Part shown: piece by piece, positions 10,883 through 58,129 of the stretch | Position numbering within the stretch: position 1 is the first letter of the stretch | Layout: every line of letters starts with the position of its first letter | Source: Turneriella sp. | GTDB lineage: Bacteria; Spirochaetota; Leptospiria; Turneriellales; Turneriellaceae | Reading direction: 5' to 3' | Assembly (NCBI GenBank): GCA_046346875.1 | Contig: JAXMHG010000006.1 | Location: forward strand, 54,478-118,477 | DNA length: 64,000 nt | The notes under the pieces: generated by a model | Databases searched by the model: none | What the model saw: the letters and a program-made list of their open reading frames with translations, nothing else | Told to the model about the DNA's origin: nothing | Program-made: the position numbers and the translations under genes

Positions 10883-13066
10883 ATGCTGCGTTTTATCCAC
10901 CTGCTGTTCCTATCGCTGATCTTCCTGTTCGACGCGGCTTGGGCTGACGAACAGCCGGCAATCGTTTACGGCGCCGACGAGGCCTTTCGGCCGTACGAGT
11001 GGTTCAGCGACGAGGGAAATCTCGAGGGTTTCCAGATTGAACTCATCAGGGCAATCGGTGAAGCGCAGGGGCGCCGTATCAGTTTTGTTACAGGGCCCTG
11101 GAGCAAGATTCGCCAATCGCTGCTCGACGGCAGTGTGCAGGTCGTGAGCATGTTCGACCAGCCGGTCCGGCGCATCTACGCCGACTTTAGCAAACCTCAC
11201 TCGGTACTGGCATCAGAAATTTTCGTGCGGATCGGCTCAAAGCCGATACTGTCGGTGCAGGAACTTGCGGGCAAAGAGGTTATCCAGCAAGAGGGAGCTT
11301 TGTCTGCTGAGTACCTGCGCACGCTGGGTATTCGTTACACATCGATCCAGGTCAAAGACCAGTTTGATGCCATGCGCCTGCTCGCTACTGGTAAACATGA
11401 CTGCGTGATCACGACACAGGTCGGCGGGCGTTATGCCCTGCAGAAACTCGGTATTCGCAATGTCATCACCACCGGTCAGCCGGTGCTGGCTTCAAACGTT
11501 GCCTTTGCTGTCCGCAAGGGTAACTCGAACCTGCTTGAATGGCTCAATTCGGGCCTTGATCGCGTTAAGGCCAACGGCACGTACGATGTACTCTACCAGA
11601 AATGGTTCGGTGAGTCTAACCGCTTCCGCATGAGTGACCTGCAGGCAATGCGTAACGTGTTCGTGGGGATCGGGCTGGCGATTGTGGTGCTGGTGGCGGT
11701 AATTGGTCTTTGGATCAAGATGTTGCGCCGGGCTGTCTCTACCAAGACGTTTGAGCTGCAGTACCTGGCCGACCACGACTCACTCACAGGACTCTATAAC
11801 CGGCATTATATCACCAACGCCATCCACTCGGCGATTGCAGACTTTCACCTGCATAGCGGGCAGCGCAACTTTGGCATCCTCTTCATCGACCTCGATCGCT
11901 TCAAGCTGGTGAATGACAGCCTCGGCCATCATGTCGGCGATCTGCTTATTAAGGCGGTCGGATTTGAATTACTCGCCTCGGTTGAAGATCGCTGCCGCGT
12001 CGCCCGCTGGGGCGGTGACGAGTTTATTGTACTCGTGAACCCTGTCGGCGACGGCGCTGCGCTGCAGCGTATCGCGATGCGCATTGCCGAAAAACTCCGA
12101 ACTCCCTACAATTTCAAGGGCAAAGATATCTTTATCGGTGCCAGTATTGGTGCCGTAATGTCTTCGCTGCGTTACCGAACAGCCGAAGAAATGCTGCGCG
12201 ACGCCGATAACGCGATGTATCGGGCTAAAAGCGACCGTCGGGTCTCGGTGCGGCTCTTTGAGCCGCAGATGCACGATGTCGCGGTTCGCAACCTGAAGCT
12301 GAGTTCCGATTTCCAAAAGGGTGTCGCACGCGGCGAACTCAGGAACCATTACCAGCCAATCTATTCGCTCGCCACCGGTAAGCTGAGCGGCTTTGAGGCT
12401 CTCGTGCGCTGGCAGCACCCCGAACTGGGGCTACTGAGCCCTGCGGTATTCCTGCCCATACTCGAGAAAACCGAGGCCATGCGGCAGCTCGGCGAATGGG
12501 TGCTGCAGAACGCCATCGAGACTGCCAAACGCTGGCACCACCATTATGCCGCGGACTTCTACATCAGCGTCAATATTTCGGACGAACAATTTGCTTTCGG
12601 AAATTTGTGTGACACGCTCTCGGGTATGCTCGAAAAATTCAGGCTGCCTCCCCGTTTTTTACGGCTGGAGATTACAGAAACAGTGCTTATGGCAGATGTC
12701 GTAGGCGGTATGTCGCAACTCGAAGAACTCAGGCAGATGCAGGTCAGGATCCTGATCGATGACTTCGGTACGGGGTTTTCTTCCCTCAGTCACCTCGCCT
12801 CGATACCCGCCGAAACCATCAAGATTGACCGTTCGTTTGTGCACGGGCTGGTGCATGGTAGCCGCAACTACGAGATTGTGCGCGCAATGCTGGCGCTGAC
12901 GCGCAACCTGCATCTCGAAGCCGTAGCAGAAGGCATTGAAACACGCCACGAAAGGGACCTTTTGGCCGAAATGGGCTGCGAATATGCCCAGGGATTCTTT
13001 TATTCTGAGCCGCTTATCGAAATGGCAGCCGAAGAGTTGCTAAAAAAAATTACTGTACAACCGTAG
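10883..13066 (+). CDS. Periplasmic amino-acid-binding (family 3 SBP) sensor fused to GGDEF-EAL
   Basis: N-terminal PBPb fold (GADEAFRPYE), TM helix, RWGGDEF, GFEALVRW, DDFGTGFSSL. Confidence 0.9.
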   Translation: MLRFIHLLFLSLIFLFDAAWADEQPAIVYGADEAFRPYEWFSDEGNLEGFQIELIRAIGEAQGRRISFVTGPWSKIRQSLLDGSVQVVSMFDQPVRRIYADFSKPHSVLASEIFVRIGSKPILSVQELAGKEVIQQEGALSAEYLRTLGIRYTSIQVKDQFDAMRLLATGKHDCVITTQVGGRYALQKLGIRNVITTGQPVLASNVAFAVRKGNSNLLEWLNSGLDRVKANGTYDVLYQKWFGESNRFRMSDLQAMRNVFVGIGLAIVVLVAVIGLWIKMLRRAVSTKTFELQYLADHDSLTGLYNRHYITNAIHSAIADFHLHSGQRNFGILFIDLDRFKLVNDSLGHHVGDLLIKAVGFELLASVEDRCRVARWGGDEFIVLVNPVGDGAALQRIAMRIAEKLRTPYNFKGKDIFIGASIGAVMSSLRYRTAEEMLRDADNAMYRAKSDRRVSVRLFEPQMHDVAVRNLKLSSDFQKGVARGELRNHYQPIYSLATGKLSGFEALVRWQHPELGLLSPAVFLPILEKTEAMRQLGEWVLQNAIETAKRWHHHYAADFYISVNISDEQFAFGNLCDTLSGMLEKFRLPPRFLRLEITETVLMADVVGGMSQLEELRQMQVRILIDDFGTGFSSLSHLASIPAETIKIDRSFVHGLVHGSRNYEIVRAMLALTRNLHLEAVAEGIETRHERDLLAEMGCEYAQGFFYSEPLIEMAAEELLKKITVQP

Positions 13067-14633: not shown

Positions 14634-14699
14634 CGGCCAGCAGCGCACAATTGCTGCGCGCTATTCGTTGTGGCATGAGTTTTGCTGCAGCGGGGCAGG

Positions 14700-16502
14700 A
14701 TGCTCGAACTCAAGTACGGTAAACGGCGGGTTGTCAAGTATCGCGGGGCAAAAACCGTCATTGGTGGTCTGACACCCAAAGACAAGATTGATATTCTGAT
14801 GTATGTCAGCAAAGAGCTGTCTACTATCAATGATACCCAGCTTCTTTTTGATCGTGTGATCGAGCTCTGCTCGGAGATTTTTGAGGCTGATAACGTTACC
14901 GTACGCATAGAAGAAGCGGGTCGGCTCAACCCGGTTGCGTTCTTACGCCAAACGACCCCCGAGCGCAGGCCACTCGCAGTGGGCGAGGGTTTTTCCGGTT
15001 CGATTTTCACCAGCCAGCAGTCGCGGCTCATCTACGATCTTGCACAACACCCCGAATACCTCGACCCGGGTGAAGAAACATTGTGCGTCATCTGCGCCCC
15101 CATCAGTGTGCGTGAAGAAAAACTGGGCACCCTCGCAGTCGAGAAAAATACTTCGCACTTCTACAAGCGCGATGATCTCGAGATCCTCGAAGCCATGGCT
15201 GCCCAGATCGCGCTGGCAATACTCAACGCGCGACTGATAACAGGTATGCTAGACGCGCAGAAGGTGCAGAAGCGCATGAATTCGCAGTTGCAGTTCGACC
15301 TGCGCATCGGCCGTACTGTACAGTCGCAGATTATCCATTCGGATATACCGTCCTTCAGGGCAATCGACATTAAAGCCGCGTACGAGCCAATGGTCGAGGT
15401 CAGCGGCGACTATTTCGACTATTACCGCTCGCATGAGTCGCTGACCGTGATCATCGCCGATGTATCCGGGCATGGGGTACCAGCCGCGCTGATTACCATG
15501 GCGCTGCATTACCACTTCAGGTTGCTTAGCGCACAGGGGTTGAGCCTGCTCGAGCTGTTGTCACAGCTCAATGAGCATATGAAACCCATTCTGCCCTCGG
15601 GTATCTATTTTACCGCCCAGCTGCTGCGCATTCACAGCGACTACAGCTTCACCTTTGTAAACGCGGGACATCCCAAGATGCTGCATTTTTCTGCCATGAG
15701 CAGTGAACTGCTGGCGCAATACGACACACCGGGGTTTCCGCTGGGCATTGCGCCGTTTGATGTACGCGAATATGAAGAGGTGAGTGGAAAGCTGCGTCCG
15801 GGTGAAACGCTGGTGCTGCTGACCGACGGTTTCGCGGAGCAGCAAAATAGCAGCCACGAACAGCCGGGGGCGGAGAAAGTCGTATCCTGGCTGCGCGCTG
15901 CGCTGTCTGAACCTTCCCAGGCGATTGAAGCATTCATGCAGTCTTTCAAGCTCTACCGCGGGGACGAGCCAAACGGCGATGACCTCACTGTGCTCACCCT
16001 GCATTACAACCTGAGGCACCTCGAGGCCGAAACCATGGTATACCAGAGCCGCAGTCGCATGCGCTCCGCCGATTACGCCGGCGCACGGCAGCTGGCGCTT
16101 TCGGCGCTCGCCGTGCGACCACAGCACCAGGACGCCCTGATTATTGTGGGTAAACTGGCCCTGTTGCAGCGCGACTTCCGTACGGCGTCGCAATACCTGG
16201 CACAGGCCTGCGCGCTGGATGACCATGTCGATCCGCAAATTTTGCTGCTGGCGGGGCACGCCGCGTACAAGGCAGAAGATATTTCATCGGCAAAACGCTT
16301 TCTCAAGCTGCTCTTATCGGAAGAACCCCAGAACATTAAGGCTGCATTGCTGCTCATTCGCTGTTACGTGCGGGCCCGCGAACCGCACAAGGCTACGCGC
16401 ACACTCAATGCTGCGCTGAAGTTTGCACCGCAAAACGAAAAATTGCAGCAGGTGGCGGATTTTCTGCGAAAAAAAGACATGCCTGTTCCGGCCGCAGTGT
16501 AG
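14700..16502 (+). CDS. GAF - PP2C/SpoIIE - TPR phosphatase
   Basis: GAF (ICAPISVREEKLGTL), VSGDYFD, DVSGHGVPAAL, LTDGFAE, GDDLT, C-terminal TPR repeats; start at 14682 or 14700. Confidence 0.85.
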   Translation: MLELKYGKRRVVKYRGAKTVIGGLTPKDKIDILMYVSKELSTINDTQLLFDRVIELCSEIFEADNVTVRIEEAGRLNPVAFLRQTTPERRPLAVGEGFSGSIFTSQQSRLIYDLAQHPEYLDPGEETLCVICAPISVREEKLGTLAVEKNTSHFYKRDDLEILEAMAAQIALAILNARLITGMLDAQKVQKRMNSQLQFDLRIGRTVQSQIIHSDIPSFRAIDIKAAYEPMVEVSGDYFDYYRSHESLTVIIADVSGHGVPAALITMALHYHFRLLSAQGLSLLELLSQLNEHMKPILPSGIYFTAQLLRIHSDYSFTFVNAGHPKMLHFSAMSSELLAQYDTPGFPLGIAPFDVREYEEVSGKLRPGETLVLLTDGFAEQQNSSHEQPGAEKVVSWLRAALSEPSQAIEAFMQSFKLYRGDEPNGDDLTVLTLHYNLRHLEAETMVYQSRSRMRSADYAGARQLALSALAVRPQHQDALIIVGKLALLQRDFRTASQYLAQACALDDHVDPQILLLAGHAAYKAEDISSAKRFLKLLLSEEPQNIKAALLLIRCYVRAREPHKATRTLNAALKFAPQNEKLQQVADFLRKKDMPVPAAV

Positions 16503-19543: not shown

Positions 19544-20860
19544 TCAACGTTTTTTTGAACGACCGCGCAGACCTTTGAGGAATTTGATCGGGTTAACGTT
19601 TTCGCCGTTCTTGGAAATCTCAAAATGCAGGTGTGGCCCAAACGAGTAGCCGGTGTCACCGGTGCGGCCGAGAACCTGGCCGCGACGCACCCTTTGGCCT
19701 ACTGCAACATGGCGGCGGCTCAGGTGCGCATAGAGTGTCTTATAGGTATCGTCGTGCTGTATGATGATGGCATTGCCATAACCGCCCAGCCAGCCTGAGT
19801 AGGTGATGGTCCCCGATTTGGCCGCACGCACCGGCACATAGAAGGCCTTGAGATCTAGTCCTTTGTGGAAAGCAGAGCGTGGCCAGCTGCGCCAGCCGTA
19901 ACCACTGGTGACGACCCGGCTGGAAACCGGTATCAGCCAACCCTCGGCGCGGCGTATCGGCTTCGCACCTGGCAGAAAAATTTCTTCGCCGGCATCGAGC
20001 AGGTCGACGTTCACGTGCTCGTTTTCAGCGATGAATTTATCGAGTGAAACCTTGTGTGCCTGCAGGACGTTCGCGAGGCGTTCATTCTTTTTCACGATGT
20101 AGTAAATTCCGTCGCGTGTGGGAATAGAAAGCGTCTGTCCGACAGACACATCCTGGAACTCATCAAGCCGGCTTGAGCCGCTGATTGACTCGGGTTTTAC
20201 CTTGTATTTTTTTGCAATGGACTGCAGGGTGTCGCCGGGTTTCACCTTGTACTGCAGTTTCTGGACCTTGTTTGCCTGTTTCTCGGCGGCCTTACTTTCT
20301 TCGGAGCGTTCTTCAATGACGCCCATCAATTGGTTCTTGATCTTTTCATCTTCTTCGAACTGGGCAATTTCGCCGGTTATGTCAGCGGCATCGTTGATGA
20401 CCTTGCCCGATTCGAGGCGACCCACACCACCCACGCCGGTTTTGGTTTCGGCAAATGCGAGCTTCACTGCATTCTGGCGTTTTTTCCAGAACATGAGCCC
20501 GAGCGAGGCGGTGAGGCAGATAACACCCATGACCATCCACAGCGCGGCTTTGCGGTCAACGCGAAGCGCACCGCTCTTCAGCGTACCGCCACGCTTGTAG
20601 AAATACAGAAACTGTCCCTTACCCTGGTAAGAGATCTCGGCGAAACCGAGATTGATACGCAGGGGAGTTGCGCTTTGTGTGCCAGTTGTATGGTTTGGCA
20701 GCGACGCAGAAAGCGGCGCAGCGCTTTTGGCCTCTTCAGGCTTTAGGGTGAAGAAATCTTTCTTCGGGTTTTTGCGAGCCGATGAATTAAGCATGCCAGG
20801 CCTGTATCCATATTTTCGACCCGGAGCGCCCGTTTGTGTGAGACCTTTTTTTCTGGCCAA
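19544..20860 (-). CDS. LysM + M23 metalloendopeptidase (catalytic motifs intact); start uncertain (TTG 20860 or ATG 20794)
   Basis: TM helix, LysM (YKVKPGDTLQSIA), HKGLD, LYAHL, GPHLHFEI. Confidence 0.88.
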   Translation of the reverse strand: MARKKGLTQTGAPGRKYGYRPGMLNSSARKNPKKDFFTLKPEEAKSAAPLSASLPNHTTGTQSATPLRINLGFAEISYQGKGQFLYFYKRGGTLKSGALRVDRKAALWMVMGVICLTASLGLMFWKKRQNAVKLAFAETKTGVGGVGRLESGKVINDAADITGEIAQFEEDEKIKNQLMGVIEERSEESKAAEKQANKVQKLQYKVKPGDTLQSIAKKYKVKPESISGSSRLDEFQDVSVGQTLSIPTRDGIYYIVKKNERLANVLQAHKVSLDKFIAENEHVNVDLLDAGEEIFLPGAKPIRRAEGWLIPVSSRVVTSGYGWRSWPRSAFHKGLDLKAFYVPVRAAKSGTITYSGWLGGYGNAIIIQHDDTYKTLYAHLSRRHVAVGQRVRRGQVLGRTGDTGYSFGPHLHFEISKNGENVNPIKFLKGLRGRSKKR

Positions 20861-20874
20861 GACGCCAACCCGTT

Positions 20875-21282
20875 TTATTGAATGCCTTTCTTGTCCAGCT
20901 CACGGACAAGACCGTAGCTTTCTTCTACAATTTTGCGTGGGTCTTTTTTATGACCACCATGGATGTTAACATTGCCCTTCAGTACAACACCACGTGAAAT
21001 GTTGAGCACCGGGGTCGTGATGTCGCCGAGCATTCTGCCGGTTTCGGTCAGCCGTACCTCATCTTTTGCTTCGATGTCGCCGATCAGCGTGCCAGCCAGA
21101 ATGACTTCGCGCGCTGAAATATTCGTTTTGACCTTACCGGTCTCGCCGACCACCAGTGCTTCGTCCGTGCGGATGTCTCCTTCGAACTTGCCGTCTACGC
21201 GCAGGCTGCCGGCAATGTAGAAGCGACCTTCGAAAATCGAACCTTCGCCGATTACAGAGTTAGTATTATCGTATTTAGCCAT
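20875..21282 (-). CDS. Bactofilin (polymer-forming cytoskeletal protein)
   Basis: SVIGEGSIFEG...LRVDGKFEGDI beta-helix repeats. Confidence 0.92.
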   Translation of the reverse strand: MAKYDNTNSVIGEGSIFEGRFYIAGSLRVDGKFEGDIRTDEALVVGETGKVKTNISAREVILAGTLIGDIEAKDEVRLTETGRMLGDITTPVLNISRGVVLKGNVNIHGGHKKDPRKIVEESYGLVRELDKKGIQ

Positions 21283-21428
21283 AGGTCACCTGTGCGGAAA
21301 ATATGGGTCAGAATCAACTAATGAGGCGCGGCGAGAACCAAAAAAGGCTTTCAGGAGTTCGTGCCCGGTATAAGGGTGAGGGCGGGGCGGGCTGTATTAC
21401 AGGCCGAGGTGCCGTCTGGCGGCAAAAC

Positions 21429-21456
21429 TCAAAATCGTTCTGTTTTTTGCCGATAT
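21429..21456 (+). promoter_or_regulatory. Putative sigma28 (FliA) promoter
   Basis: TCAAA-N15-GCCGATAT ending 8 nt before ATG 21465; consensus is TAAA-N15-GCCGATAA. Confidence 0.4.
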
Positions 21457-21464
21457 ACAGACAG

Positions 21465-21998
21465 ATGCTCCTCAAAGGAAAGGCGGTTCTCTTGCTGGCC
21501 ACTGCCTGCATCTGCAGTGCGACCGAAGCCTTGAGGCACCATGCCGAACGTGCCGATCAGCCTGATTTTGCCGATTACCGGCAGAGTGGTCGCGTCATCA
21601 GGACGTATTCCGGCAACGCAGAGCACAACCACTACGGTGTCACTCTGCGTCTGCGCGACGCCAGTGTGAGAGCCCTGGCAGAGGGGACAGTCTACAGCGC
21701 AGGCCAGCTCAGGGGATATGGCAATGTCGTCATTGTCGACCACGGTCACGGCTGGCATACCCTGTATTCCGACATAGCCGAGATTAGGGTTGCGGTCGGA
21801 CAGCAGGTCAGGCGCGGCGCGGTGCTCGGTACGCCGCGCGAGAAAAGGCTTTTTTTGGTTGTATCCTACAAGGGCAATCCAATAAACCCCTCAGATGTAA
21901 TAGGTCGACGCCCCCGCAATGCCGGTGGTCATTCAGAACGAGTGCAAAGCCGTTCGGGTGTTCCGTCGCTGGCGGCTGTCGCAATAAATGCAGGATAA
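21465..21998 (+). CDS. Secreted M23-fold protein with degenerate zinc ligands (EnvC-like, probably inactive)
   Basis: GYGNVVIVDHGHG, VGQQVRRG core present; HxxxD reads HYGVT, YAH reads YSD, HLH absent. Confidence 0.8.
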   Translation: MLLKGKAVLLLATACICSATEALRHHAERADQPDFADYRQSGRVIRTYSGNAEHNHYGVTLRLRDASVRALAEGTVYSAGQLRGYGNVVIVDHGHGWHTLYSDIAEIRVAVGQQVRRGAVLGTPREKRLFLVVSYKGNPINPSDVIGRRPRNAGGHSERVQSRSGVPSLAAVAINAG

Positions 21999-22001
21999 TA
22001 A

Positions 22002-23234
22002 ATGGCTTGGGAACTGGTCAACGGAACGATTGTAACTCCGCGCGACGTGATTGAACGTGGTTCGGTGCAGATTGAGAAGACACGTGTCTCCCAGGTGAGC
22101 AAAAGTTCGCGCAAATCTGCGGACATGATGCAGATCGATGTCAACGGGATGCTGATTTTTCCCGGCCTCATCAATTGCCACGACCACCTGCTCGGCACCT
22201 ATGTGCCACGCGTCGGCGACCGCAGGCCGTACCTCAACTGGCTCGAATGGGACAACGATCTCAAGAGTTCGCCAATCTACGCGGAGCGGCAGCAGATTGA
22301 ATCTTCTGACCTGTACCAGCTGGGTGGTTTTCGCCACCTGCTCTGTGGAATTACCCGCGTGCAGGATCACATTCCGCATTTCGTTCGCGAGCTGTTTGCG
22401 AAAGACATGCCGATTCGTATTATTTCTGATTTTGCCATGGCGCATTCGGTTACTTCCTTTGCGCTCAAGTGGGGCGACGGCATCGAAGCTGAGCATGCAA
22501 AAGCAAAAGAAAAGAACATCCCCTTTATCACGCACTGCTCAGAGGGTTACGATGAAGAAACGCTGCGCAGCGTAGAAACACTGGCCGCTAAGAAAGCTCT
22601 CAGCAAGCAGACGGTATTGATTCACGGTATCGCGTTCACCGACAAAGACATGGAACTGCTCGCCGAACACCAGTGCAACGTCGTCTGGTGCCCGGTCTCG
22701 AATCTTTACATGTTTGAGCAGACCGCGCGCGTTAAAGAACTTATGGATATGGGTATCAACGTGACGCTGGGTACCGATTCACCCATGTCGGGAAGTTTCA
22801 GTATCTTTGAAGAGTTCCGTACGGCGAGGGAGTTCTACCAATACGCTTACGGTCGCGCGATTGATGATCGTGCGCTGGTTGATATGATGACCGTGAACGC
22901 GGCCAGGGCCATGTGCCTGCCTGACGCGGGCGAGATAGCAGAGGGCAAAGCTGCCGACCTGCTGCTGATCGACGGCAACTCGACGAACCCCTGGGCGGCG
23001 CTGACGCATGCAGATTACGCCGATATCATGCTCGTGATCGCCGAAGGCCAGCCGCGTTACGGCGACATCGCCTTCGCACCGGTCTTTGATGCAATGAAAA
23101 TTCCCTACCAGACGATCCTGGTGAAAGGGGCGCGCAAGATCATCGCCGGCGATATACTCGGGCTGCAAAATCGTGTACGGCGCGCGGTCAAATTCAGGAA
23201 AGAACTCGACTTCCTGCCGATAGAGGCTGCCTGA
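22002..23234 (+). CDS. Amidohydrolase-superfamily deaminase, possibly a CadD-like cAMP deaminase
   Basis: PGLINCHDHL, HCSEG, LIHG, LGTDS metal and catalytic motifs; gene context with cNMP-binding genes. Confidence 0.8.
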   Translation: MAWELVNGTIVTPRDVIERGSVQIEKTRVSQVSKSSRKSADMMQIDVNGMLIFPGLINCHDHLLGTYVPRVGDRRPYLNWLEWDNDLKSSPIYAERQQIESSDLYQLGGFRHLLCGITRVQDHIPHFVRELFAKDMPIRIISDFAMAHSVTSFALKWGDGIEAEHAKAKEKNIPFITHCSEGYDEETLRSVETLAAKKALSKQTVLIHGIAFTDKDMELLAEHQCNVVWCPVSNLYMFEQTARVKELMDMGINVTLGTDSPMSGSFSIFEEFRTAREFYQYAYGRAIDDRALVDMMTVNAARAMCLPDAGEIAEGKAADLLLIDGNSTNPWAALTHADYADIMLVIAEGQPRYGDIAFAPVFDAMKIPYQTILVKGARKIIAGDILGLQNRVRRAVKFRKELDFLPIEAA

Positions 23235-24400
23235 TGCCATTAACGCGTAACTATTCTGCCGGTTCCATCGTTTACTTCGCCGGTGACGTCGGCGAAGATA
23301 TCTACGTCATGCAGAAGGGACGTATCTCTCTTATCTCCACTTCGCTCGACCAAAAAGACGACATTAAAGAAGATGTGCGCAAGGGCGAATTTTTCGGGGT
23401 AAAGTCGGCTCTGGGCCGCTATCCCCGTGAAGAGACAGCGCAGGTTTTAGCCGATTCGCAGGTGCTGGTTTTCAAACTGGCGGAGTTTGAGCAGTTCGCG
23501 CAGAAAAATACCCGCATTGTACTGCAGATGCTCAAGGTCTTTTCGTCGCAGCTGCGCCGCGTGCACAAGGCAGTGCGCGAGTTCCTGGGGGAACACGGTG
23601 CTTCCGAAGCTTCGATGGAGCTCGTGCGCGTCGGTGAATACTACTACAAAGCAGGCAAAACCGACTATGCTCTTTATGTCTTTAATGCGTACCTGAAAAA
23701 TTACCCGGCAGGTTCACTGACCGAACGTGTCCGGCGCCTGGCGCAGCTGGTAAAAGAAGGAGCTCCCTTCCCGATCGACCTGCCCGATATCAATGAAGAA
23801 GTGCACAGCAACGACGTTGCCCAGCGCACCGGCCAGATCGCGCAGCAAATGCATGACGACCCCGCCGACGACTATGCTATCCATGACCACGGCGATATCA
23901 CTCCCGATTTGCCCGACATGGGCGATATGCCTGGCGATTTACCCGATCTTCCGCCGCCGGCAGGTGATTTCGACATGCCGATGCCCGATGATTTCGACGC
24001 AGCACCGGCCAAAACCCCGACGCAGCAGTTTAATGCCGGCCTGAGCGCATTTGCCGCGCAGCAGTTTGACGAAGCTCTTGCTGCGTACGAAGACGCTCTC
24101 TCCCTGGGGGGGGCATCAGATCCCGTGTTGCATGAGAAGCTACTCTACGAGCTGGGTCGCACCTACGTGAAGAAAAACAATGCCAAGAGCGCGGTGGAGA
24201 AATTCTCTGAATTACTGCGGACCTTCGCGCACGGTACCCTTGCGCGCAAGACCATGATCCAGCTGGCGGAAATTTACGAGCGCGCCAAAGATACTAATCG
24301 TGCGGCGGCGCTGTATGAGAAAGCCGCGCAGATGCCACCGCAGGATAAAGAGGCAAACATCGCACACCAAAAGGCAAACCAGCTCAGGGGGCGCAAATGA
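23234..24400 (+). CDS. cNMP-binding domain + TPR protein with an Asp/Pro-rich linker
   Basis: cNMP fold (GDVGEDIYVMQKGRI...GEFFGVKSALGRYPREETA), TPR helices; TGATG overlap with the upstream gene. Confidence 0.85.
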   Translation: MPLTRNYSAGSIVYFAGDVGEDIYVMQKGRISLISTSLDQKDDIKEDVRKGEFFGVKSALGRYPREETAQVLADSQVLVFKLAEFEQFAQKNTRIVLQMLKVFSSQLRRVHKAVREFLGEHGASEASMELVRVGEYYYKAGKTDYALYVFNAYLKNYPAGSLTERVRRLAQLVKEGAPFPIDLPDINEEVHSNDVAQRTGQIAQQMHDDPADDYAIHDHGDITPDLPDMGDMPGDLPDLPPPAGDFDMPMPDDFDAAPAKTPTQQFNAGLSAFAAQQFDEALAAYEDALSLGGASDPVLHEKLLYELGRTYVKKNNAKSAVEKFSELLRTFAHGTLARKTMIQLAEIYERAKDTNRAAALYEKAAQMPPQDKEANIAHQKANQLRGRK

Positions 24401-25038
24401 CGGGCGGCGCGCTGTTCAGTAAATTTGGCAAGCAATACAATACGGGTGAAATTCTTTTCTGCGAGTTTGAGCCGGGTAACAGTTTTTACCTGATCCAGAC
24501 TGGTCGCGTGAAGATCTCCAAGGTTGTTAAAGATAAAGAAAAGACGATGGATATTCTCGGGGTAGGTGACATTTTCGGTGAGATGGCCATTCTCGAAGAA
24601 CAGCCGCGATCAGCCACGGCGACAGCCATTGAACCCGTTACAGTCCTGCATTTTGACCGGGACAACTTTGTCTCGATGATGATGAGCCAGCCGCAGCTGG
24701 CTTTTAAGCTACTGGTGGTATTCTCCAAGCGTATTTATGACGCCAAGCGGCGCCTCATGATACTGCTGCTCGACGACATCCAGTCGAAAATAGCCGACGT
24801 TTTTCTGATGCTCGCAGAGAAAGAGCCGACGTATGCCAGCATGCGCGAAGTGTCTTTTCCCGTAACTGTAGACGATGTCGCCAACTGGGCAGGGGTGAGC
24901 GCCGACCAGGTTTCAGAGCAGCTCAACCACTGGGCTAAAATCGGCAAGGTGGAGCTTTACAGCGACCGTATTTTTGTCCGCAACCTTGTGGATTTCAAGC
25001 GAATCGTAGCACAGAAGCGTAAGACAGAAAAAAGATAA
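24397..25038 (+). CDS. Crp/Fnr-family transcriptional regulator
   Basis: GDIFGEMAILEEQPRSATA phosphate-binding cassette, C-terminal winged HTH; ATGA overlap. Confidence 0.9.
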   Translation: MTGGALFSKFGKQYNTGEILFCEFEPGNSFYLIQTGRVKISKVVKDKEKTMDILGVGDIFGEMAILEEQPRSATATAIEPVTVLHFDRDNFVSMMMSQPQLAFKLLVVFSKRIYDAKRRLMILLLDDIQSKIADVFLMLAEKEPTYASMREVSFPVTVDDVANWAGVSADQVSEQLNHWAKIGKVELYSDRIFVRNLVDFKRIVAQKRKTEKR

Positions 25039-25079
25039 ATAACAGATGGAAAATTGCCGACATTCAAATGAGGTATATC

Positions 25080-25910
25080 ATGTTACGTAAATTCACTTTC
25101 GCCCTCTTCTTCTCGGCTTCGGCGCTGTTAGCGCAGGATTCAGACAAAAAGTCATCTTCAGAGCAGCCGGCTACTGCCTCACAACCGGCAGGCGGGCGCA
25201 TACGTGACGACCGCGTTTCGGTTGAAAACGTCAGTTTCTGGAAGAAGAACGCTACCGACGGAAAAGGTGACTATCTCGAGGTAACGTTCGATATCATGAA
25301 TAAGAGCGAAGACGCCATTCCGCTCAAGATGTTCGTCATCGCCTTTAACGAGCGTGATCTGGTGGACAAAGAATACCGCCGTTTCGTCGAATACCCAAAA
25401 TGGCGCGTTTTCGACGAAGACAAGAAAATGCACAAGCTGGTGCTCTTTGACAGTATTCCGGCGACGAAACATGAAGACGTGGCGGCCTTCGCCCGCAAAA
25501 AAGAAGAAGCTGTTGCCAAGAACGGCGGGTTCAAGCCCCGGGAAGATGCAGACGAGAATACCGGGCCAAAGAAGAAGACCACGCTGAAGCAGTTTCTGCA
25601 GTACGTGCAGTATGTTCACGAAAACCCGAACGCCGGTGTGGATGTTATGCTACAGGGTTACGAAAACACGAACTATAACATCAAGTGCGCTGGTGAGGCG
25701 AAAGCCGGCAAAAAATGCCTCGAGAAGAAGGGCGCCTACCTGATCGAAGAAAAAGCGCTCAAAGTGAATGTCTGGGCCAAGTTGCTCGCGCGTTACACGG
25801 TAGATAAGAAATTCTTCAATCACCTCGGCCTTATTTTGTACGATACTGAGTCGAAAAAGATCGTCCATCGCCAGTTCTACAGTATCAACGGCCGTTTCAA
25901 AATCTACTAG
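25080..25910 (+). CDS. Hypothetical exported protein
   Basis: GAGGT RBS, signal peptide MLRKFTFALFFSASALLA, strong codon bias. Confidence 0.75.
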   Translation: MLRKFTFALFFSASALLAQDSDKKSSSEQPATASQPAGGRIRDDRVSVENVSFWKKNATDGKGDYLEVTFDIMNKSEDAIPLKMFVIAFNERDLVDKEYRRFVEYPKWRVFDEDKKMHKLVLFDSIPATKHEDVAAFARKKEEAVAKNGGFKPREDADENTGPKKKTTLKQFLQYVQYVHENPNAGVDVMLQGYENTNYNIKCAGEAKAGKKCLEKKGAYLIEEKALKVNVWAKLLARYTVDKKFFNHLGLILYDTESKKIVHRQFYSINGRFKIY

Positions 25911-26014: not shown

Positions 26015-26503
26015 GTGCTGACGCAGCGTATTGGCAAAATTATCGAGCGCAGCCGTGAACACTGGCTGTTTGTGCCGCTTTTTGTTCTCCTGATACTCTC
26101 TTTTGTCTACGTGTTTTTCATTGGTGACAAGGGTCTGATGGCTTACCGGGTTCGTATGCGTGAAAAAGAAGATCTCAAGACGCAGATTGAAAGCCTTACA
26201 CGCCAAAAGGCGGAGCTGAGGCAAAAGCTTGCCATGCTCCGGAACAAAGAGATGGCAGTGCAGAAGTTTTCCAAGGATTTTTACCTTTTCCAAGAGAAGG
26301 TGCGGATCCTGAAATTTCGGGAGTCCGCTGAAGAGAAGCCGGCGGAACAGAATGAATCGGCCGACCTCGGTACCCTGCAGAAGTCTTATATCATCATTTC
26401 GACCCTGGTGATCGCCCTCGTAACGCTCTTCTTTTACCGCCGCAATGCGGCACAGATGAATCTTGACCGTGTGCGACCGTTTGCTTTGAGTGACGGCGAA
26501 TGA
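26015..26503 (+). CDS. Septum formation initiator (FtsB/DivIC-like) with an extra C-terminal TM helix
   Basis: TM, then GDKGLMAY, coiled coil, AVQKFSKDFYLFQE; second hydrophobic helix near the C-terminus. Confidence 0.7.
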   Translation: MLTQRIGKIIERSREHWLFVPLFVLLILSFVYVFFIGDKGLMAYRVRMREKEDLKTQIESLTRQKAELRQKLAMLRNKEMAVQKFSKDFYLFQEKVRILKFRESAEEKPAEQNESADLGTLQKSYIIISTLVIALVTLFFYRRNAAQMNLDRVRPFALSDGE

Positions 26504-28053
26504 TCTTTCGTCGTTTGTTGCCACTGTTTTTCGCAGCGTTACTGCCGCTTGTTGCGGCCAACAAGCTGGAGAAATACCACGCTGCAGTAGCCGATTACGA
26601 AGCCCGGCGTTACGCACAGGCAGTGGAGCTATTTTCGCAATTCGTCAAAGAGAACCCGTATGAACCCGAAGTTCGCAAGGCATGGTTCTACATGACAAAT
26701 GCGCTCGCCGAGCAGGGCAACTGCCACGAGGCGCTGGCAAGAGCGAACATCACACTCGACCGCTACCCGGTACATCCCGATAAGTCTGAACTGCTCGTCA
26801 TCAGTGCCGAGTGTTTATACCGTGTGAATGCGCACACCCGCGCTGAGAAGACACTTTCGGGCCTGCGCAGGGTTGAAGAGATGCCGTCGCTCGCCTACCG
26901 GGCAGAACGCCTGCGCGGAATGATCGCTTACGATGCGCGGGGGTATGCCCGCGCCGAAAAACACTACCGGGCGGCTCTTCAACACGCCGCCAGGCTCGGT
27001 ATTGAAGATACAACGCTGCTCAGGGTGAATGCCGATCTTGGCCGCATATATGCCACCGATTCACTTCGGACTGAAGAAGCCGTAGCTTACCTGTCGCGCG
27101 CAGTTGCGCTGGCAGAAAAGTTTGAACCTGGCCAGGCGCGGTCGCTGAAAACACTGCTGCGGCGGTTGTCTCTGCGGCGTATCGACAAGCTGAACGGTCT
27201 CGACGATAATTCGATTGCCGATATCCGGGTTGACGGCGACGACGTCTATGTTGCCACCTGGGGCGGTGGACTGGTCCGTTACACACGTTCGCAGGATAAG
27301 CTGGCAAAAATTCCACTGCCTTCACCGCAGCTGCGGGGACTCTATGCCGATTTCGAAGAGATCTTTGTCGCTTCGTACGATGGTATTTTTCGTATCAGCA
27401 AAAAGACCGGCACGACCGAGTCCATTAATGATGCTAAAGGAACGCTCCGCCTTGGTCAGAAAATCATCAAAGATGACCGCTTCATCTACTGTTCGACACT
27501 CAGCCGCGGCCTGATACAGTATGACAGTATCAAGAGGGGCGTCACCACGCTCGGTAAAGATTCGTGGGTGAAATCTGACCAGGTATACGCGATCGATGCA
27601 GACCTCGAGTATGTCGCCGTGGGTACCCTCGACCAGGGGGCGCTGATTCACCACAAGGCGAGCGGCGAAACCATACAGATTACGAAGGGCGAGAATGACC
27701 TGCGTTCAGAGAATGTTAAAGCGGTTTTACTGGACGGTCGTTACGTCTATATCGCCGCACACAATGACGGTGTGTACGCGTATGACCTGCAGCAAAAGAA
27801 GCTCCGTCGCTTAGAAGCCGAGATACCTTTTCCGTCGGCGCTCGCGCGCCGTGAAAACGAAATATTTATCGGCACTTCAGGGCAGGGGGTGCGCGTGCTC
27901 GATCGTAACACCGGCAGACTCGAGCGTATTACCGCAGTCGAAGGGCTGTCATCTAACGAAGTGCAGATACTGCGCGTTGAAGGGGAGTTTCTCTGGATTG
28001 GTTACCTTGAGCACGGTATCGACGTTCTCTACCGCCCGTCAAAGAAAGACTAA
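26500..28053 (+). CDS. Exported TPR + beta-propeller protein
   Basis: Signal peptide, N-terminal TPRs, propeller blade repeats (GLDDNSIADI, YVATWGGGL, GLSSNEVQIL); ATGA overlap. Confidence 0.8.
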   Translation: MIFRRLLPLFFAALLPLVAANKLEKYHAAVADYEARRYAQAVELFSQFVKENPYEPEVRKAWFYMTNALAEQGNCHEALARANITLDRYPVHPDKSELLVISAECLYRVNAHTRAEKTLSGLRRVEEMPSLAYRAERLRGMIAYDARGYARAEKHYRAALQHAARLGIEDTTLLRVNADLGRIYATDSLRTEEAVAYLSRAVALAEKFEPGQARSLKTLLRRLSLRRIDKLNGLDDNSIADIRVDGDDVYVATWGGGLVRYTRSQDKLAKIPLPSPQLRGLYADFEEIFVASYDGIFRISKKTGTTESINDAKGTLRLGQKIIKDDRFIYCSTLSRGLIQYDSIKRGVTTLGKDSWVKSDQVYAIDADLEYVAVGTLDQGALIHHKASGETIQITKGENDLRSENVKAVLLDGRYVYIAAHNDGVYAYDLQQKKLRRLEAEIPFPSALARRENEIFIGTSGQGVRVLDRNTGRLERITAVEGLSSNEVQILRVEGEFLWIGYLEHGIDVLYRPSKKD

Positions 28054-34724: not shown

Positions 34725-37700
34725 ATGTCTTCCGTCTGGCCAGAAAACGAACAGGCGCGTCTCGAGGCCCTGCGCAGTTACCAGATTCTCGATACGCTGC
34801 CTGAAGCCAGTTTTGACAGGCTCACCCGGCTTGCCTCGGCCATCTGCGGCGTACCGATTGCGCTTGTCAGTCTGATTGACACTGAACGGCAGTGGTTCAA
34901 GTCACGCGTGGGGCTTGATGCAGCAGAAACCGCTCGCAGCATTTCATTCTGCCAGCATGCGATTCTCGGTACAGGAATCATGGAGGTCGAAGATGCGACG
35001 CGGGACGACCGATTTCGCGCGAACCCCCTCGTTACGGAAGATCCCGAAATCCGCTTTTATGCCGGCGCCCCACTGATTGATCCGGATGGTTTTGCGCTCG
35101 GCACGCTCTGTGTCATTGACCGGCAACCCCGCAGCCTGACCCAGGAGCAGCGCACAGCCCTGAGAGACCTCGCCGATGAGGTGATGGAGCATTTGCGAGT
35201 TCGCAAAGAACGCGACCGGTACCGGCATACGGGGTTCAGGCTCACTTCGATCATCGAAGGCACAAACGTTGGCACATGGGAATGGAATGTCCAAACCGGA
35301 GAGACAGTTTTCAATGAGCGGTGGGCAGAGATTATCGGGTATCAGCTTTCAGACCTTGCCCCGATCAATATAGACACCTGGCTCCGGTTTGCGCACCCTG
35401 AAGATCTTGCTGAGAGTTCAAAACAGCTCGATCTGCATTTCAATGGAAAAGCGTCTTTCTATGAATGTGAATCGCGTATGCGTCACCGCGACGGTCACTG
35501 GGTGTGGGTGCTCGACCGCGGTAAAGTTTTCAGCCGTACAGAAGATGGCAAACCACTCTGGATGTACGGAACGCATCAGGATATTACCGAACGCAAGGCT
35601 GTTGAAAAAGCCCTCGCTGATAGCAAGGCGCGTTATGCTTCAATTGTTGCAGCGCTACCCGATTTGGTTTTCCTCTTCGATGCTGAGGGGCGCTACCTCG
35701 ATTGTCATGCTGGCGATCATACACGGTTCTGGATGCCACCCGAGAAGTTTATCGGCAGGCTGATTAACGAAACTATGCCGCCTGATTTTGCCGCACTCTC
35801 GATGGCGAAACTGAACCAGGCGCTGGCTTCTCGTTCTCTGATTACTTATAAGTATGATAGTCGTAATCCAGTCAGTGGTGAAATCGAGTATTTTGAGGCG
35901 CGTATGGTGCCGACAGCGCAGAATCAAGTGCTTTGCGTTATCCGTGATATGTCCACTGAAACGCGGCAGAACCAAAAGTTGGCGCATGCGCAACAGTTGC
36001 TCACACTCACAGGCCGCGTAGCGAGACTAGGTGCATGGGAATACAGGCCTGACTCGGGGGAGTTTCTGCTTTCTGAGGTAGCGCGTGAGATACTTGACAT
36101 TCCGCCGGATTCGACTTTTACATTGCACAGTGCATTAGAGCGTTTCATTCAGTCATCTGACCGAGAGTTCATGCTGAATAATCTGAACGCAGCCATACAG
36201 ACGGGCAGGCCATTTGAGGCGGAGATAGTTCTGAAGAATTTTCACAGAGAATCATTCTGGGCCAAAATCAAAGCAGCCACCACCTTTCTGGAAGGTGTCT
36301 GCGTGAGCGTCTACGGCGTCTTGCAGGATATCGATTCTGCCAAAAAAATACAGCTTGAGCTGGCCGCAGTGAGTTCACGGTTGCAGAGTATTTTTGACGA
36401 GATGACAGACGTTGTCTGGTCGGCGAGCTTGCCCGATTATACGACAACTTTTGTTACGCCGTCGATAGAACAGATGTTTGGCTATTCGCCCGACGAGTGG
36501 CTCAGCGGCCGTGATATGACGCGCAAGACCATACATGAAGCCGACCTGCCTCGGCTTGTCGAGATGTTAGATGAGCTGGAGAAATATTCTCAATCTGAAA
36601 AAACGTATCGAATTGTCACTAAAGACGGACGCATCAAATGGATCAGGAACAGGGTAAAGCAGGTCTGCGATGAAAATGGGGTGCCGATACGGTTGGATGG
36701 ATATGTATCTGATGTAACCGAATTGCAGGCAAACATAGACGACTTGAGGCATGCGCAATTTCTCGCCGAGAGAGCGAATCTTGCCAAATCAGAATTTCTC
36801 TCGAGTATGAGTCACGAACTGCGCACCCCGCTGAATTCTATTCTGGGTTTTAGCCAGCTGCTCGAACTCAACTCGGCAAATCATTTGGATAATGAAGAAT
36901 TGGATCAGATTACCCATATCAGAAAGGCAGGTTCTCACCTGCTTAATTTAATCAATGACATACTGGATCTTTCGAGAATTGAAAGCGGCACCATAGCGCT
37001 TACTGAAGAAGTTGTAGAGGTGGGACAACTTATATCCGATGTTATGGCTTTCCTTCGGCCTGTGGCCGTTGCCAGACAGGTTACATTCAAACAGTACCAT
37101 CATACTGAAACTTATGTAAAGGCCGATCGCCTGCGCTTGAAGCAGGTACTGCTGAACCTGATTTCGAATGCTATCAAGTACAATCGGGAGCGAGGATGGG
37201 TTGCCATAGAGGTGGATGCTCAGCATCGGGATAATATTCAGGTTAATGTTAAAGATTCCGGATATGGGATTGAGGCAGAAAAGTTGTCACTGCTTTTCCA
37301 GCCTTTCCAGCGTCTGGGTGCAGAACGGTCGCAGATTGAAGGTACAGGCATCGGCCTGGTCATCGTGCGTCGTCTGGTTGAGCTGATGTCAGGACGCGTA
37401 ACTGTAAGCAGTGTTCCGGGAGAGGGGAGTGTATTTTCACTGGAGATACCCCGGGCTGAAAGGCCGTCTCAGCCAAAGCAGACAATCAAGACCGATGGTG
37501 GCGGCTTGCAGCAGATAGCACAGGCTACGGTGCTTTACGTTGAAGACAACGCAGACAACCGCTTTCTGATGGAACGCTTTTTTTCGCGTATACCTGGAAT
37601 CCGGTTGTTATTGACAGAAACCGGAAGATCAGGAATTGAAATTGCCGCTGCGGAAAACCCCAATCTTATTTTGCTGGATATCCACCTGCCCGAATTGGAC

Positions 37701-37907
37701 GGCTATCAGGTGCTCAACGCATTGAGGCAGAGTAAGGAAACTGCAAAAATACCGGTTGTGGCAGTCTCTGCCGCAGCCAACGAGCAGGATATCAGGAAGG
37801 GGCTGGCGGCCGGTTTTGATGATTATCTGACGAAGCCATTAAATTTGGATATTCTGACGGAGGTCGTTCTGAAATTCTGCAAAGCGCGCGGTGGCGGCCA
37901 GGGATGA
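34725..37907 (+). CDS. Cytoplasmic hybrid histidine kinase: GAF - multiple PAS - HisKA - HATPase - REC
   Basis: GAF (IRFYAGAPL), PAS/PAC repeats, H-box SMSHELRTPLNSI, GTGIGL, REC ILLDIHLPELDG. Confidence 0.92.
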   Translation: MSSVWPENEQARLEALRSYQILDTLPEASFDRLTRLASAICGVPIALVSLIDTERQWFKSRVGLDAAETARSISFCQHAILGTGIMEVEDATRDDRFRANPLVTEDPEIRFYAGAPLIDPDGFALGTLCVIDRQPRSLTQEQRTALRDLADEVMEHLRVRKERDRYRHTGFRLTSIIEGTNVGTWEWNVQTGETVFNERWAEIIGYQLSDLAPINIDTWLRFAHPEDLAESSKQLDLHFNGKASFYECESRMRHRDGHWVWVLDRGKVFSRTEDGKPLWMYGTHQDITERKAVEKALADSKARYASIVAALPDLVFLFDAEGRYLDCHAGDHTRFWMPPEKFIGRLINETMPPDFAALSMAKLNQALASRSLITYKYDSRNPVSGEIEYFEARMVPTAQNQVLCVIRDMSTETRQNQKLAHAQQLLTLTGRVARLGAWEYRPDSGEFLLSEVAREILDIPPDSTFTLHSALERFIQSSDREFMLNNLNAAIQTGRPFEAEIVLKNFHRESFWAKIKAATTFLEGVCVSVYGVLQDIDSAKKIQLELAAVSSRLQSIFDEMTDVVWSASLPDYTTTFVTPSIEQMFGYSPDEWLSGRDMTRKTIHEADLPRLVEMLDELEKYSQSEKTYRIVTKDGRIKWIRNRVKQVCDENGVPIRLDGYVSDVTELQANIDDLRHAQFLAERANLAKSEFLSSMSHELRTPLNSILGFSQLLELNSANHLDNEELDQITHIRKAGSHLLNLINDILDLSRIESGTIALTEEVVEVGQLISDVMAFLRPVAVARQVTFKQYHHTETYVKADRLRLKQVLLNLISNAIKYNRERGWVAIEVDAQHRDNIQVNVKDSGYGIEAEKLSLLFQPFQRLGAERSQIEGTGIGLVIVRRLVELMSGRVTVSSVPGEGSVFSLEIPRAERPSQPKQTIKTDGGGLQQIAQATVLYVEDNADNRFLMERFFSRIPGIRLLLTETGRSGIEIAAAENPNLILLDIHLPELDGYQVLNALRQSKETAKIPVVAVSAAANEQDIRKGLAAGFDDYLTKPLNLDILTEVVLKFCKARGGGQG

Positions 37908-37941: not shown

Positions 37942-39042
37942 TCAGGCGATTGTTTCGTGAAGCATTTCGGGGAAATAGATTTCTACCTTCTGAGATTTGC
38001 CCCTAACACTGCTTTCCCTCAGTTTTTTGCATTCTAACTGCGAGCCAAGCAGGTGGCGTGTTTCGCTGTCGATCAGCATGTCAACACCTGCACGTTTCGT
38101 GAGTGTCTCCAGTCGCGCGCATAGATTGACCGGATCACCCAGGATCGTATACTCGACCCGGTGTACATTGCCTATATTCCCGGCAAAAACTTCACCGGTA
38201 GCGATGCCAATGCCGTAGTGAATAGTCTCACCGAATTCACTGGCGATAAAATCGTTGTACAATCTGAAATGTTCGCGTATTTTCATTGCACAGGTGATTG
38301 CGTTGCGGGTTGCGTGCGGTGAATAGCTCCTCAGTCCAAAAGTCACGAGAAAGCCGTCACCGGTGTACTTGTTTATTGTGCCACCATTAGAGAAAATCAG
38401 ATCGGACAGATCTGAGAAAAGTTCACTGAGAAAGACAAAAAAACGCTGGGGTCCAAGGCGCTCTGCCAGGGTCGTTGAACCACGAAGATCAAACATCATA
38501 AAAGTTCCGCGCACGATGTGACCTCCCGGTTCGGTGGAAATCGTGCCATCCAGAATCGCGGCAATAAGGTCACGCGAAAAATATTTGCTTAACTTGCGGA
38601 GGTCATCCTGCGCCTTATACTGAAGATTGTTTACCGTTTTCCGGTAATTCTGCATTGCCAGCAGTGCTTTGACCCTGAGGCGGAATTCGGCATGAACAAA
38701 AGGTTTGCGTAGCAAATCATTCGCTCCGAGTTCAAGTGCCTGTACCGCCGACTGGTGGTCGTCGTCGCCCGTGACGATTAATATATCCGGGTGCCGCTCG
38801 TGCTGCCTGTTACAGATTTTGGCCAGAATTTCCAGTCCGGACATATCCGGTAGATTGAGATCGAGCACTATAAGATCGGGCTGCCATGACTCGAGTTGTT
38901 TTAGTCCCTGCATGCCGTCATGTGCGACACGGACTACACAGCCGAGGCTCTCAAGCAGCGCCTGCTCAATCTTCGCTGTGGTCGGTTCATCTTCAATCAA
39001 CAATACACTCGATGTAATGGAGGCGGGTGCTTGAATTTCCAT
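37942..39042 (-). CDS. Response regulator REC - class III adenylate cyclase
   Basis: LLIEDE, VLDLNLPDMSG; FDLRGST, NKYTGDG, YTILGDPVNLCARLE. Confidence 0.9.
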   Translation of the reverse strand: MEIQAPASITSSVLLIEDEPTTAKIEQALLESLGCVVRVAHDGMQGLKQLESWQPDLIVLDLNLPDMSGLEILAKICNRQHERHPDILIVTGDDDHQSAVQALELGANDLLRKPFVHAEFRLRVKALLAMQNYRKTVNNLQYKAQDDLRKLSKYFSRDLIAAILDGTISTEPGGHIVRGTFMMFDLRGSTTLAERLGPQRFFVFLSELFSDLSDLIFSNGGTINKYTGDGFLVTFGLRSYSPHATRNAITCAMKIREHFRLYNDFIASEFGETIHYGIGIATGEVFAGNIGNVHRVEYTILGDPVNLCARLETLTKRAGVDMLIDSETRHLLGSQLECKKLRESSVRGKSQKVEIYFPEMLHETIA

Positions 39043-58037: not shown

Positions 58038-58129
58038 ATAAAGATTTTGTGACGACCTCCTGCCCAGTCCATAATCCGTAGAACATGTTGCGCAGCCGTC
58101 TGCAGCGTAGAATCCTACCCGCAGATACC

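Follow-up and report, generated by a model that had tools for sequence, protein, structure and literature searches.

The 64,000-nt stretch of Turneriella sp. DNA analysed here (contig JAXMHG010000006.1, positions 54,478 to 118,477, forward strand; hereafter the window) raises the question of what a deaminase-type enzyme does in an operon with two cyclic nucleotide receptors. Three consecutive genes, named ORF1, ORF2 and ORF3 (Table 1), encode a metal-dependent amidohydrolase, a protein that joins a cyclic nucleoside monophosphate (cNMP)-binding domain to TPRs, and a CRP-type protein. We found that this three-gene module is conserved across the Spirochaetota, in an arrangement far beyond chance. 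Judged from sequence and context, a role of ORF1 as a cyclic-nucleotide deaminase, acting most simply on 3',5'-cyclic AMP (cAMP), is plausible.

A coupled three-gene module across the Spirochaetota

The initial annotation had described three translationally coupled genes with TGATG and ATGA overlaps, and the ORF calls and junction letters bear this out. The ORF1 stop and the ORF2 start (TGA/ATG) share 1 nt (...cctgATGcca), ORF2 and ORF3 overlap by the 4 nt ATGA (...caaATGAcgg), and a purine-rich Shine-Dalgarno-like stretch lies 5-7 nt 5' of each of the three starts. Nearest in sequence (85-97% identity) are proteins of Turneriella and Leptospiraceae metagenome-assembled genomes (MAGs), and the operon DNA is present in activated-sludge and wastewater metagenomes. 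Sludge and biofilm metatranscriptome assemblies contain 42-76% of the operon 31-mers. RNA-derived contigs of low depth cover the operon and cross the junctions of ORF1 with the upstream M23 peptidase gene, of ORF1 with ORF2, of ORF2 with ORF3, and of ORF3 with the downstream gene orf280 (25038/25068), which fits co-transcription. By their overlaps and short gaps, their kept order, and the junction-crossing RNA contigs (with possible DNA carry-over), ORF1 to ORF3 form a single transcription unit.

To analyze the conservation of the module, we scanned one genome per species for relatives of ORF1, found 222, and retained 80 loci, of which the 68 with at least 2.1 kb of downstream DNA were used to count gene order. 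All 68 have the order amidohydrolase, CNB-TPR (CNB, cyclic-nucleotide-binding), CNB-HTH (HTH, helix-turn-helix) on the same strand, with median gaps of 18 nt between the first two genes and 1.5 nt between the last two. The triad is kept even around amidohydrolase relatives of just 38-39% identity. In the reverse direction, we started from ORF3 in metagenome contigs, and both upstream genes were present in 38 of the 42 loci with enough upstream DNA. Because ORF1 is adjoined by two cNMP-binding genes in almost every spirochaete locus examined, it probably edits or destroys a cyclic-nucleotide signal.

In Treponema-like MAGs, the amidohydrolase gene is accompanied by a short version of ORF2 (181-200 aa) and an ORF3-like gene. 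One of these loci (L164) carries a Metallophos_2 phosphoesterase gene after the module. A divergent gene for a PHP-domain phosphoesterase and a ComM/Mg-chelatase-like gene precede the module in Treponema-like and some other loci (L164:2683-6806, L165:2814-6191, L169:2405-7852, L138:2231-6621); at L138, this context is present and the amidohydrolase is absent. None of these PHP, ComM and Metallophos_2 neighbours flanks the 80 genome loci. Another spirochaete MAG locus (L163:1678-6704) has split genes, for an ORF2-type CNB domain (183 aa), a 100-aa TPR protein and a 134-aa HTH_Crp_2-like protein. These lie near M23/LysM and sigma-70 genes with no amidohydrolase, so that the M23 association recurs there without the enzyme.

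Active site of the enzyme and pockets of the two receptors

ORF1 matches Pfam Amidohydro_1 at 98 bits, as well as Amidohydro_3. Its match to A_deaminase (PF00962) reaches 22.4 bits over residues 166-282 only, below the cut-off of 27, which leaves it outside the adenosine/AMP deaminase family. All NCBIfam matches are well under their cut-offs (at most 110 bits vs 300-780), and NCBIfam holds no cAMP-deaminase model near ORF1 or E. coli Add. The active site consists of H60-x-H62, H178-x-x-E181, H208 and D259. All six residues are the same in 64 of 64 orthologues, leaving aside the lineages that have lost the metal-binding His of strand β5 (see below). In a profile alignment with Tm0936, the HxxE, His and Asp coincide; we take the Tm0936 counterparts to be H55/H57, H200/E203, H228 and D279. 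ORF1 has the metal and catalytic residues, the (β/α)8 barrel and the N/C composite β-domain of the COG0402 type (mononuclear, subtype III). Other invariant motifs of the family are NWLxWDNDLKS, ERQQ, DHIPHF and WCPxSN. We also searched the window and 81 loci (L001-L081) for a COG1816 gene with E. coli Add, a query sequence that scores 674 bits against NF006846. The search gave no more than weak superfamily-level matches to ORF1 orthologues, with E of about 0.006-0.1 in their β5-β8 region.

The AlphaFold2 (AF2) model of ORF1 (pLDDT 94.5, pTM 0.94) was compared with solved structures by Foldseek, which returned AtzA (atrazine chlorohydrolase), Vcz (isocytosine deaminase), the 5'-methylthioadenosine (MTA)/adenosine deaminases of P. 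aeruginosa (PA3170) and C. violaceum, and Tm0936, at TM 0.68-0.75, 17-21% identity and E from 1e-19 to 1e-25. The COG0402 adenosyl deaminases among these, namely Tm0936 (S-adenosylhomocysteine (SAH)/MTA), PA3170 (4dyk/4gbd) and Cv1032 (4f0r/4f0s), share with ORF1 the fold (TM ~0.7), the metal and catalytic residues, and a conserved Trp after the HxH motif. However, identity to them is low, their β2-β4 substrate loops are unalignable with those of ORF1, and their context is salvage whereas that of ORF1 is signalling. Taken together, ORF1 is predicted to be a catalytically competent member of a distinct subfamily of COG0402-type deaminases. The metal-dependent deaminase-type amidohydrolase and the two different cNMP-binding proteins of the initial annotation thus hold up, by Pfam and by the catalytic residues.

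ORF2 has a Pfam cNMP_binding domain (58 bits, residues 5-92, above threshold) and matches several TPR families. After the CNB domain come two TPRs, an acidic linker rich in Pro (about residues 180-260) and further TPRs at the C-terminus; there is no signal peptide. Its phosphate-binding cassette, GEFFGVKSALGxYPREETAQ, is non-canonical and invariant in 68 orthologues, and the variant also occurs in L. interrogans and in the Treponema-type short homologues (~180-200 aa). In alignments with PKA RII and CRP-family domains, Val56 takes the place of the Glu that contacts the ribose 2'-OH, and Arg65 is kept but followed by Glu66, so that the canonical pattern of Glu plus Arg-[ST/A]-Ala is absent. Since the variant cassette is invariant, the pocket would be functional and under selection, with changed chemistry where the sugar and phosphate bind.

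ORF3 carries the more familiar features, with cNMP_binding at 87.8 bits and HTH_Crp_2 at 28.3 bits (cut-off 27). Its cassette FGEMAILEEQPRSATA is canonical (F-G-E-[LM]-A-[LI]...P-R-[ST]-A) and invariant in 71 orthologues. Mean column identity is 0.75 in the CNB domain, 0.85 in the C-helix (RIYDAKRRL) and 0.58-0.60 in the HTH; in the HTH-like domain, where CRP has DNA-contacting residues of the pattern R-E...R, the position of the contacting Arg varies (A/V/I/E/L) and the helix is acidic. For the L. interrogans ORF3 orthologue, no HTH match is on record. The assignment of ORF3 as a transcription factor is therefore provisional. Among solved structures, the nearest relative is M. tuberculosis CRP (Rv3676; 3h3u, 3mzh, 3i54), aligned over both domains (residues 14-194, E=8e-24) and sharing the same type of phosphate-binding cassette. 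Unlike that protein, ORF3 lacks conserved HTH recognition residues, and its near-invariant Ala116/Lys117 align with Thr134/Asn135 of M. tuberculosis CRP, which we take to contact adenine N6. We infer that a Lys donor at position 117 would suit a 6-oxo purine. The pocket features of ORF2 and ORF3 allow for a ligand other than cAMP, which falls short of showing cyclic IMP (cIMP) sensing.

Relatives of the enzyme in other architectures also bear on its substrate. An exhaustive search of 1.84 billion representatives gave 206 relatives of ORF1 at E <=1e-30. One is a fusion of TIR_2, CarboxypepD_reg and amidohydrolase (L166:6001-8079), 40% identical to ORF1 over its full length, and directly upstream lies a gene for TIR_2, a class III cyclase (Guanylate_cyc) and cNMP_binding (L166:3618-5651). 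Genes for a DUF4062 protein and AAA_lid_14 stand upstream of this pair, in an arrangement seen once; the pair looks like a signalling or defence-like island. The TIR/cyclase/CNB neighbour is thus an independent link, outside the spirochaetal operon, between this family and a cyclase with a cNMP receptor. Neither this pairing nor the phylum-wide operon of an amidohydrolase and two CNB genes is mentioned in the literature searched.

Many further relatives are S-adenosylmethionine (SAM) methyltransferase-amidohydrolase fusions of 630-670 aa, with about 28-33% identity to ORF1. In this sister clade (P0383, P0406, P0409, P0425, P0460, P0387), the methyltransferase is mostly N-terminal and in P0387 C-terminal. 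SAH is both the product of methyltransferases and a classical substrate of COG0402 deaminases. The fusions suggest removal of a SAH-type product and so fit an adenosyl-type substrate for the family. We infer that an adenosine-containing ligand is the common denominator of all these contexts, with cAMP as the obvious candidate in the operon.

The Leptospira orthologue, CadD and rival substrates

The initial annotation had made its proposal conditional on ORF1 being the orthologue of L. interrogans CadD. L. interrogans carries an ORF1 orthologue of 40% identity (P0178, WP_000455555.1, L081:6001-7251) in the same operon, in which the M23/LysM gene LIC10271 (= LA0312) is followed by genes for a 416-aa amidohydrolase, a 351-aa CNB-TPR protein and a 221-aa CNB protein. 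The amidohydrolase is by position LA0311/LIC10270, given that TrkH is LA0314 and that LIC10271 corresponds to LA0312; its gene has one plausible start codon. The 90% cluster (of P0125) that contains this protein also lists LIC_10271-family M23 proteins of 168-221 aa, probably a clustering artefact that arose where a gene call bridged the 18-nt gap by fusion or read-through. Where the metal-binding His of β5 is expected, the L. interrogans orthologue has a Cys (YITCIAEGFD). The position is Arg in L. santarosai, L. adleri and L. gomenensis, and Gly, together with H60Y, in two Leptospiraceae MAG proteins. The variant proteins (including P0124, P0128, P0130, P0132 and P0133) also show changes beside D259 (DSPMSG to DSSICG), and the two CNB genes are intact in their loci. 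The enzyme may thus have been remodelled or inactivated in pathogenic Leptospira.

According to two papers that cite it, CadD is an amidohydrolase-superfamily enzyme of L. interrogans that converts cAMP to cIMP (PMC4279170, PMC4398509). The literature searched cites CadD without sequence or family details and gives no locus tag for it. CadD (EC 3.5.4.46) was reportedly studied by Goble, Feng, Raushel & Cronan in 2013; the abstract is said to call the protein 'annotated as an adenosine deaminase', the work is said to stand in the same laboratory's COG1816 series, and kcat/Km is reportedly ~3e5 per M per s. We assume on this basis that CadD belongs to COG1816/PF00962 (the adenosine deaminase family), for which ORF1 lies under the threshold. 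The label itself does not settle the matter, since 'adenosine deaminase' is also what depositors of PDB entries call COG0402 enzymes, which keeps the ORF1 family eligible.

ORF1 could then be a true CadD orthologue, in which case CadD would be LA0311/LIC10270, cAMP to cIMP would already be established, and only the receptor context would be new. The superfamily and species of CadD and the L. interrogans orthologue in the same operon speak for this. However, the names given to WP_000455555.1 and to the listed members of its cluster go no further than 'amidohydrolase (family protein)' or 'hydrolase'. Among the hundreds of proteins in the family, none is called CadD or cAMP deaminase by any source, and LIC10268-70 and LA0309-11 are not mentioned in this context in the literature searched. 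In addition, a Cys in L. interrogans, or an Arg in sister species, in place of the metal-binding His fits a proficient Zn enzyme poorly, and would be an odd active site for an enzyme with the proficiency reported for CadD. We therefore consider orthology unlikely, and ORF1 is probably an analogue of CadD. Both are amidohydrolase-superfamily metal enzymes from Leptospiraceae, and the reaction of CadD and its effect on cAMP receptors are those proposed for ORF1; by contrast, ORF1 is Amidohydro_1/COG0402-like with HxxE, and CadD is described as a quencher with no receptor-linked operon mentioned in the literature searched.

Two further readings place the substrate elsewhere. ORF1 might deaminate a non-cyclic adenosyl metabolite (SAH, MTA, 5'-deoxyadenosine or adenosine), with the CNB proteins regulating it or being co-regulated, as its nearest characterised sequence relatives are MTA/SAH and 5'-deoxyadenosine deaminases and the methyltransferase fusions of the sister clade point to SAH. 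But housekeeping salvage leaves unexplained the near-obligate linkage to two CNB genes across the phylum, as well as the TIR-cyclase-CNB neighbour, and the methyltransferase-fused clade is only ~30% identical, with different family motifs; we regard this, too, as an unlikely explanation. The ligand might instead be another nucleotide signal (cGMP to cXMP, a cyclic ADP-ribose (cADPR)-type compound or other), or ORF1 might serve the CNB-TPR protein mainly by binding a ligand or as a scaffold, without catalysis, and possibly in connection with cell-wall remodelling through the M23 peptidase. The loss of the β5 His in pathogenic Leptospira and two MAG lineages with the operon kept, the ORF2 cassette without the Glu that binds the ribose 2'-OH, the TIR fusion partner, and the envelope-related genes upstream and around (M23, bactofilin, M23/LysM, DivIC-like) would all suit this idea, which we rate as quite unlikely, as the invariance of the six catalytic residues elsewhere argues for catalysis and ORF3 has every canonical feature of a 3',5'-cNMP cassette.

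The reading that we tentatively place ahead of these, while holding it short of probable, is that ORF1 deaminates the purine ring of an adenosine-containing signalling nucleotide, most simply cAMP to cIMP, and controls the ligand pool of the co-encoded CNB proteins, as an analogue of CadD. Under this mechanism, ORF1 to ORF3, here after the M23 gene, would be expressed as one co-transcribed module; ORF1 would deaminate its nucleotide, with 3',5'-cAMP as the simplest candidate; and deamination would fix the level of the ligand available to ORF2 and ORF3, or end its supply, in a feedback logic where ORF3 is a putative canonical CRP-fold cNMP binder and ORF2 a putative TPR scaffold with a variant pocket. 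Bacterial cAMP-CRP systems pair a receptor with a co-regulated ligand remover, such as the CpdA phosphodiesterase with CRP or Vfr. The likeness lies in a receptor and a ligand-removing enzyme that are encoded or regulated together, giving feedback. In contrast to those systems, the spirochaetal module has a deaminase in place of a phosphodiesterase and two receptors, and the DNA-reading helix of ORF3 shows little conservation and has no Arg at the usual place. A feedback quench is probably the better description of the module. Signal conversion, as put forward in the initial annotation, is a minority possibility; its specific form, in which a COG0402 deaminase other than CadD turns cAMP into cIMP and one co-encoded receptor, ORF2 or ORF3, is tuned to the 6-oxo product, strikes us as improbable.

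Several observations weigh against a cAMP-deaminating circuit, beginning with the substituted β5 His of Leptospira described above. ORF1 residues 82-164, which hold the substrate loops, align with no characterised deaminase, so that specificity is not readable from the sequence. Four of the 42 metagenome loci retain the CNB-TPR/CNB-HTH pair without the enzyme, and one amidohydrolase relative stands alone. Since it is absent from those four loci and altered in pathogenic Leptospira, the enzyme is accessory to the receptor pair and, in some lineages, either dispensable or remodelled. In 34 of 70 loci, the amidohydrolase gene has a same-strand M23 gene no more than 400 nt to its 5' side, and this recurrent partner and the cell-envelope neighbourhood are unexplained by the cNMP model. 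Metatranscriptome libraries, moreover, can carry DNA.

Two class III adenylate cyclases in the window had been listed alongside the circuit. Both are present, but they lie 13 and 33 kb off, outside the conserved module. We rejected them as support for a cAMP circuit, as they are distant from the module and not syntenic with it, and they add nothing to the cAMP reading because the lineage has many cyclases. The window is dense in signalling genes (10883-13066, 60236-63571, 14682-16502, 34725-37907), so two cyclases in 64 kb are unremarkable. It encodes two GGDEF-EAL proteins, one with an SBP_bac_3 domain and the other with MASE1 and PAS, as well as a GAF-SpoIIE phosphatase with TPR, a hybrid PAS/GAF histidine kinase, a CheA-like kinase and a methyl-accepting chemotaxis protein (MCP). 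What stands of the proposed deaminase/cNMP circuit are the tight phylum-wide operon, the complete active site and the cNMP link in two independent architectures.

Neighbouring genes and meaning of the module

The M23 peptidase gene, which stops 3 nt before ORF1, had been overlooked in the initial annotation. Its product matches Pfam Peptidase_M23 at 64.9 bits and NCBIfam LIC_10271_M23 at 45 bits, under the cut-off of the latter. Relatives align to the 21303-21998 ORF only from residue ~35-87 onward, and the true start is probably near 21465, at an internal Met (MLLKGKAVLLLATAC..., with a lipoprotein-like signal). With such a start, ~180 nt would remain between this gene and the bactofilin gene, room for divergent promoters that serve both. 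E. coli-type CRP sites (TGTGA-N6-TCACA) were sought 5' of the operon; the window has 23 matches vs 22.8 expected, a chance level, with none in the promoter region.

Downstream, orf280 starts 29 nt 3' of ORF3 and is found at the same place in L001-L011 and several more distant loci. A window scan found no plus-strand terminator-like site before 26494. In the Turneriella group, orf280 is probably in the same transcript as ORF3. Envelope and division genes surround the operon (M23/LysM, bactofilin and M23 at 19544-21998; DivIC/FtsB-like and TPR/β-propeller at 26015-28053), a hint that the output of the module may concern the cell wall or division.

Table 1. Positions of ORF1 to ORF3 and of other features in the 64,000-nt window
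Feature	Position	Strand	Length	Assignment	Basis
ORF1	22002-23234	+	410 aa	COG0402-type mononuclear metal-dependent amidohydrolase with deaminase-type active site; uncharacterised, mainly spirochaetal subfamily	Pfam, NCBIfam, AF2, Foldseek
ORF2	23234-24400	+	388 aa	N-terminal cNMP-binding-fold domain plus TPRs	Pfam, column counts, PDB alignments
ORF3	24397-25038	+	213 aa	CRP/FNR-fold cNMP-binding protein with C-terminal winged-HTH-like domain	Pfam, M. tuberculosis CRP alignment
M23 (LytM-type) peptidase gene	21303-21998	+		Distant member of the LIC_10271 cell-wall hydrolase family	Pfam, NCBIfam
orf280	25068-25910	+		Secreted protein, function not assigned	No Pfam or NCBIfam match
M23/LysM peptidase gene	19544-20860	-		Window neighbour	
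Bactofilin gene	20875-21282	-		Window neighbour	
DivIC/FtsB-like gene	26015-26503			Window neighbour	
TPR plus β-propeller protein gene	26500-28053			Window neighbour	
Class III cyclase gene	37942-39042	-		REC+Guanylate_cyc	Pfam
Class III cyclase gene	58085-60223	+		7TMR-DISM+Guanylate_cyc	Pfam

In bacteria, cAMP signals are generally considered to be ended by phosphodiesterases or by export. To our knowledge, cAMP deamination is known from one enzyme, CadD, whose physiological role is unclear. If the favoured reading is true, base editing of a second messenger would be an old, selected part of a signalling circuit across the phylum, including Leptospira and Treponema-like lineages, and the remodelled active site in pathogenic Leptospira would mark a change in this circuit en route to pathogenicity. 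If, further, one receptor were tuned to cIMP, cIMP would be a genuine bacterial second messenger with a receptor of its own. The module offers three defined, clonable proteins for asking whether cIMP or another deaminated nucleotide is sensed.

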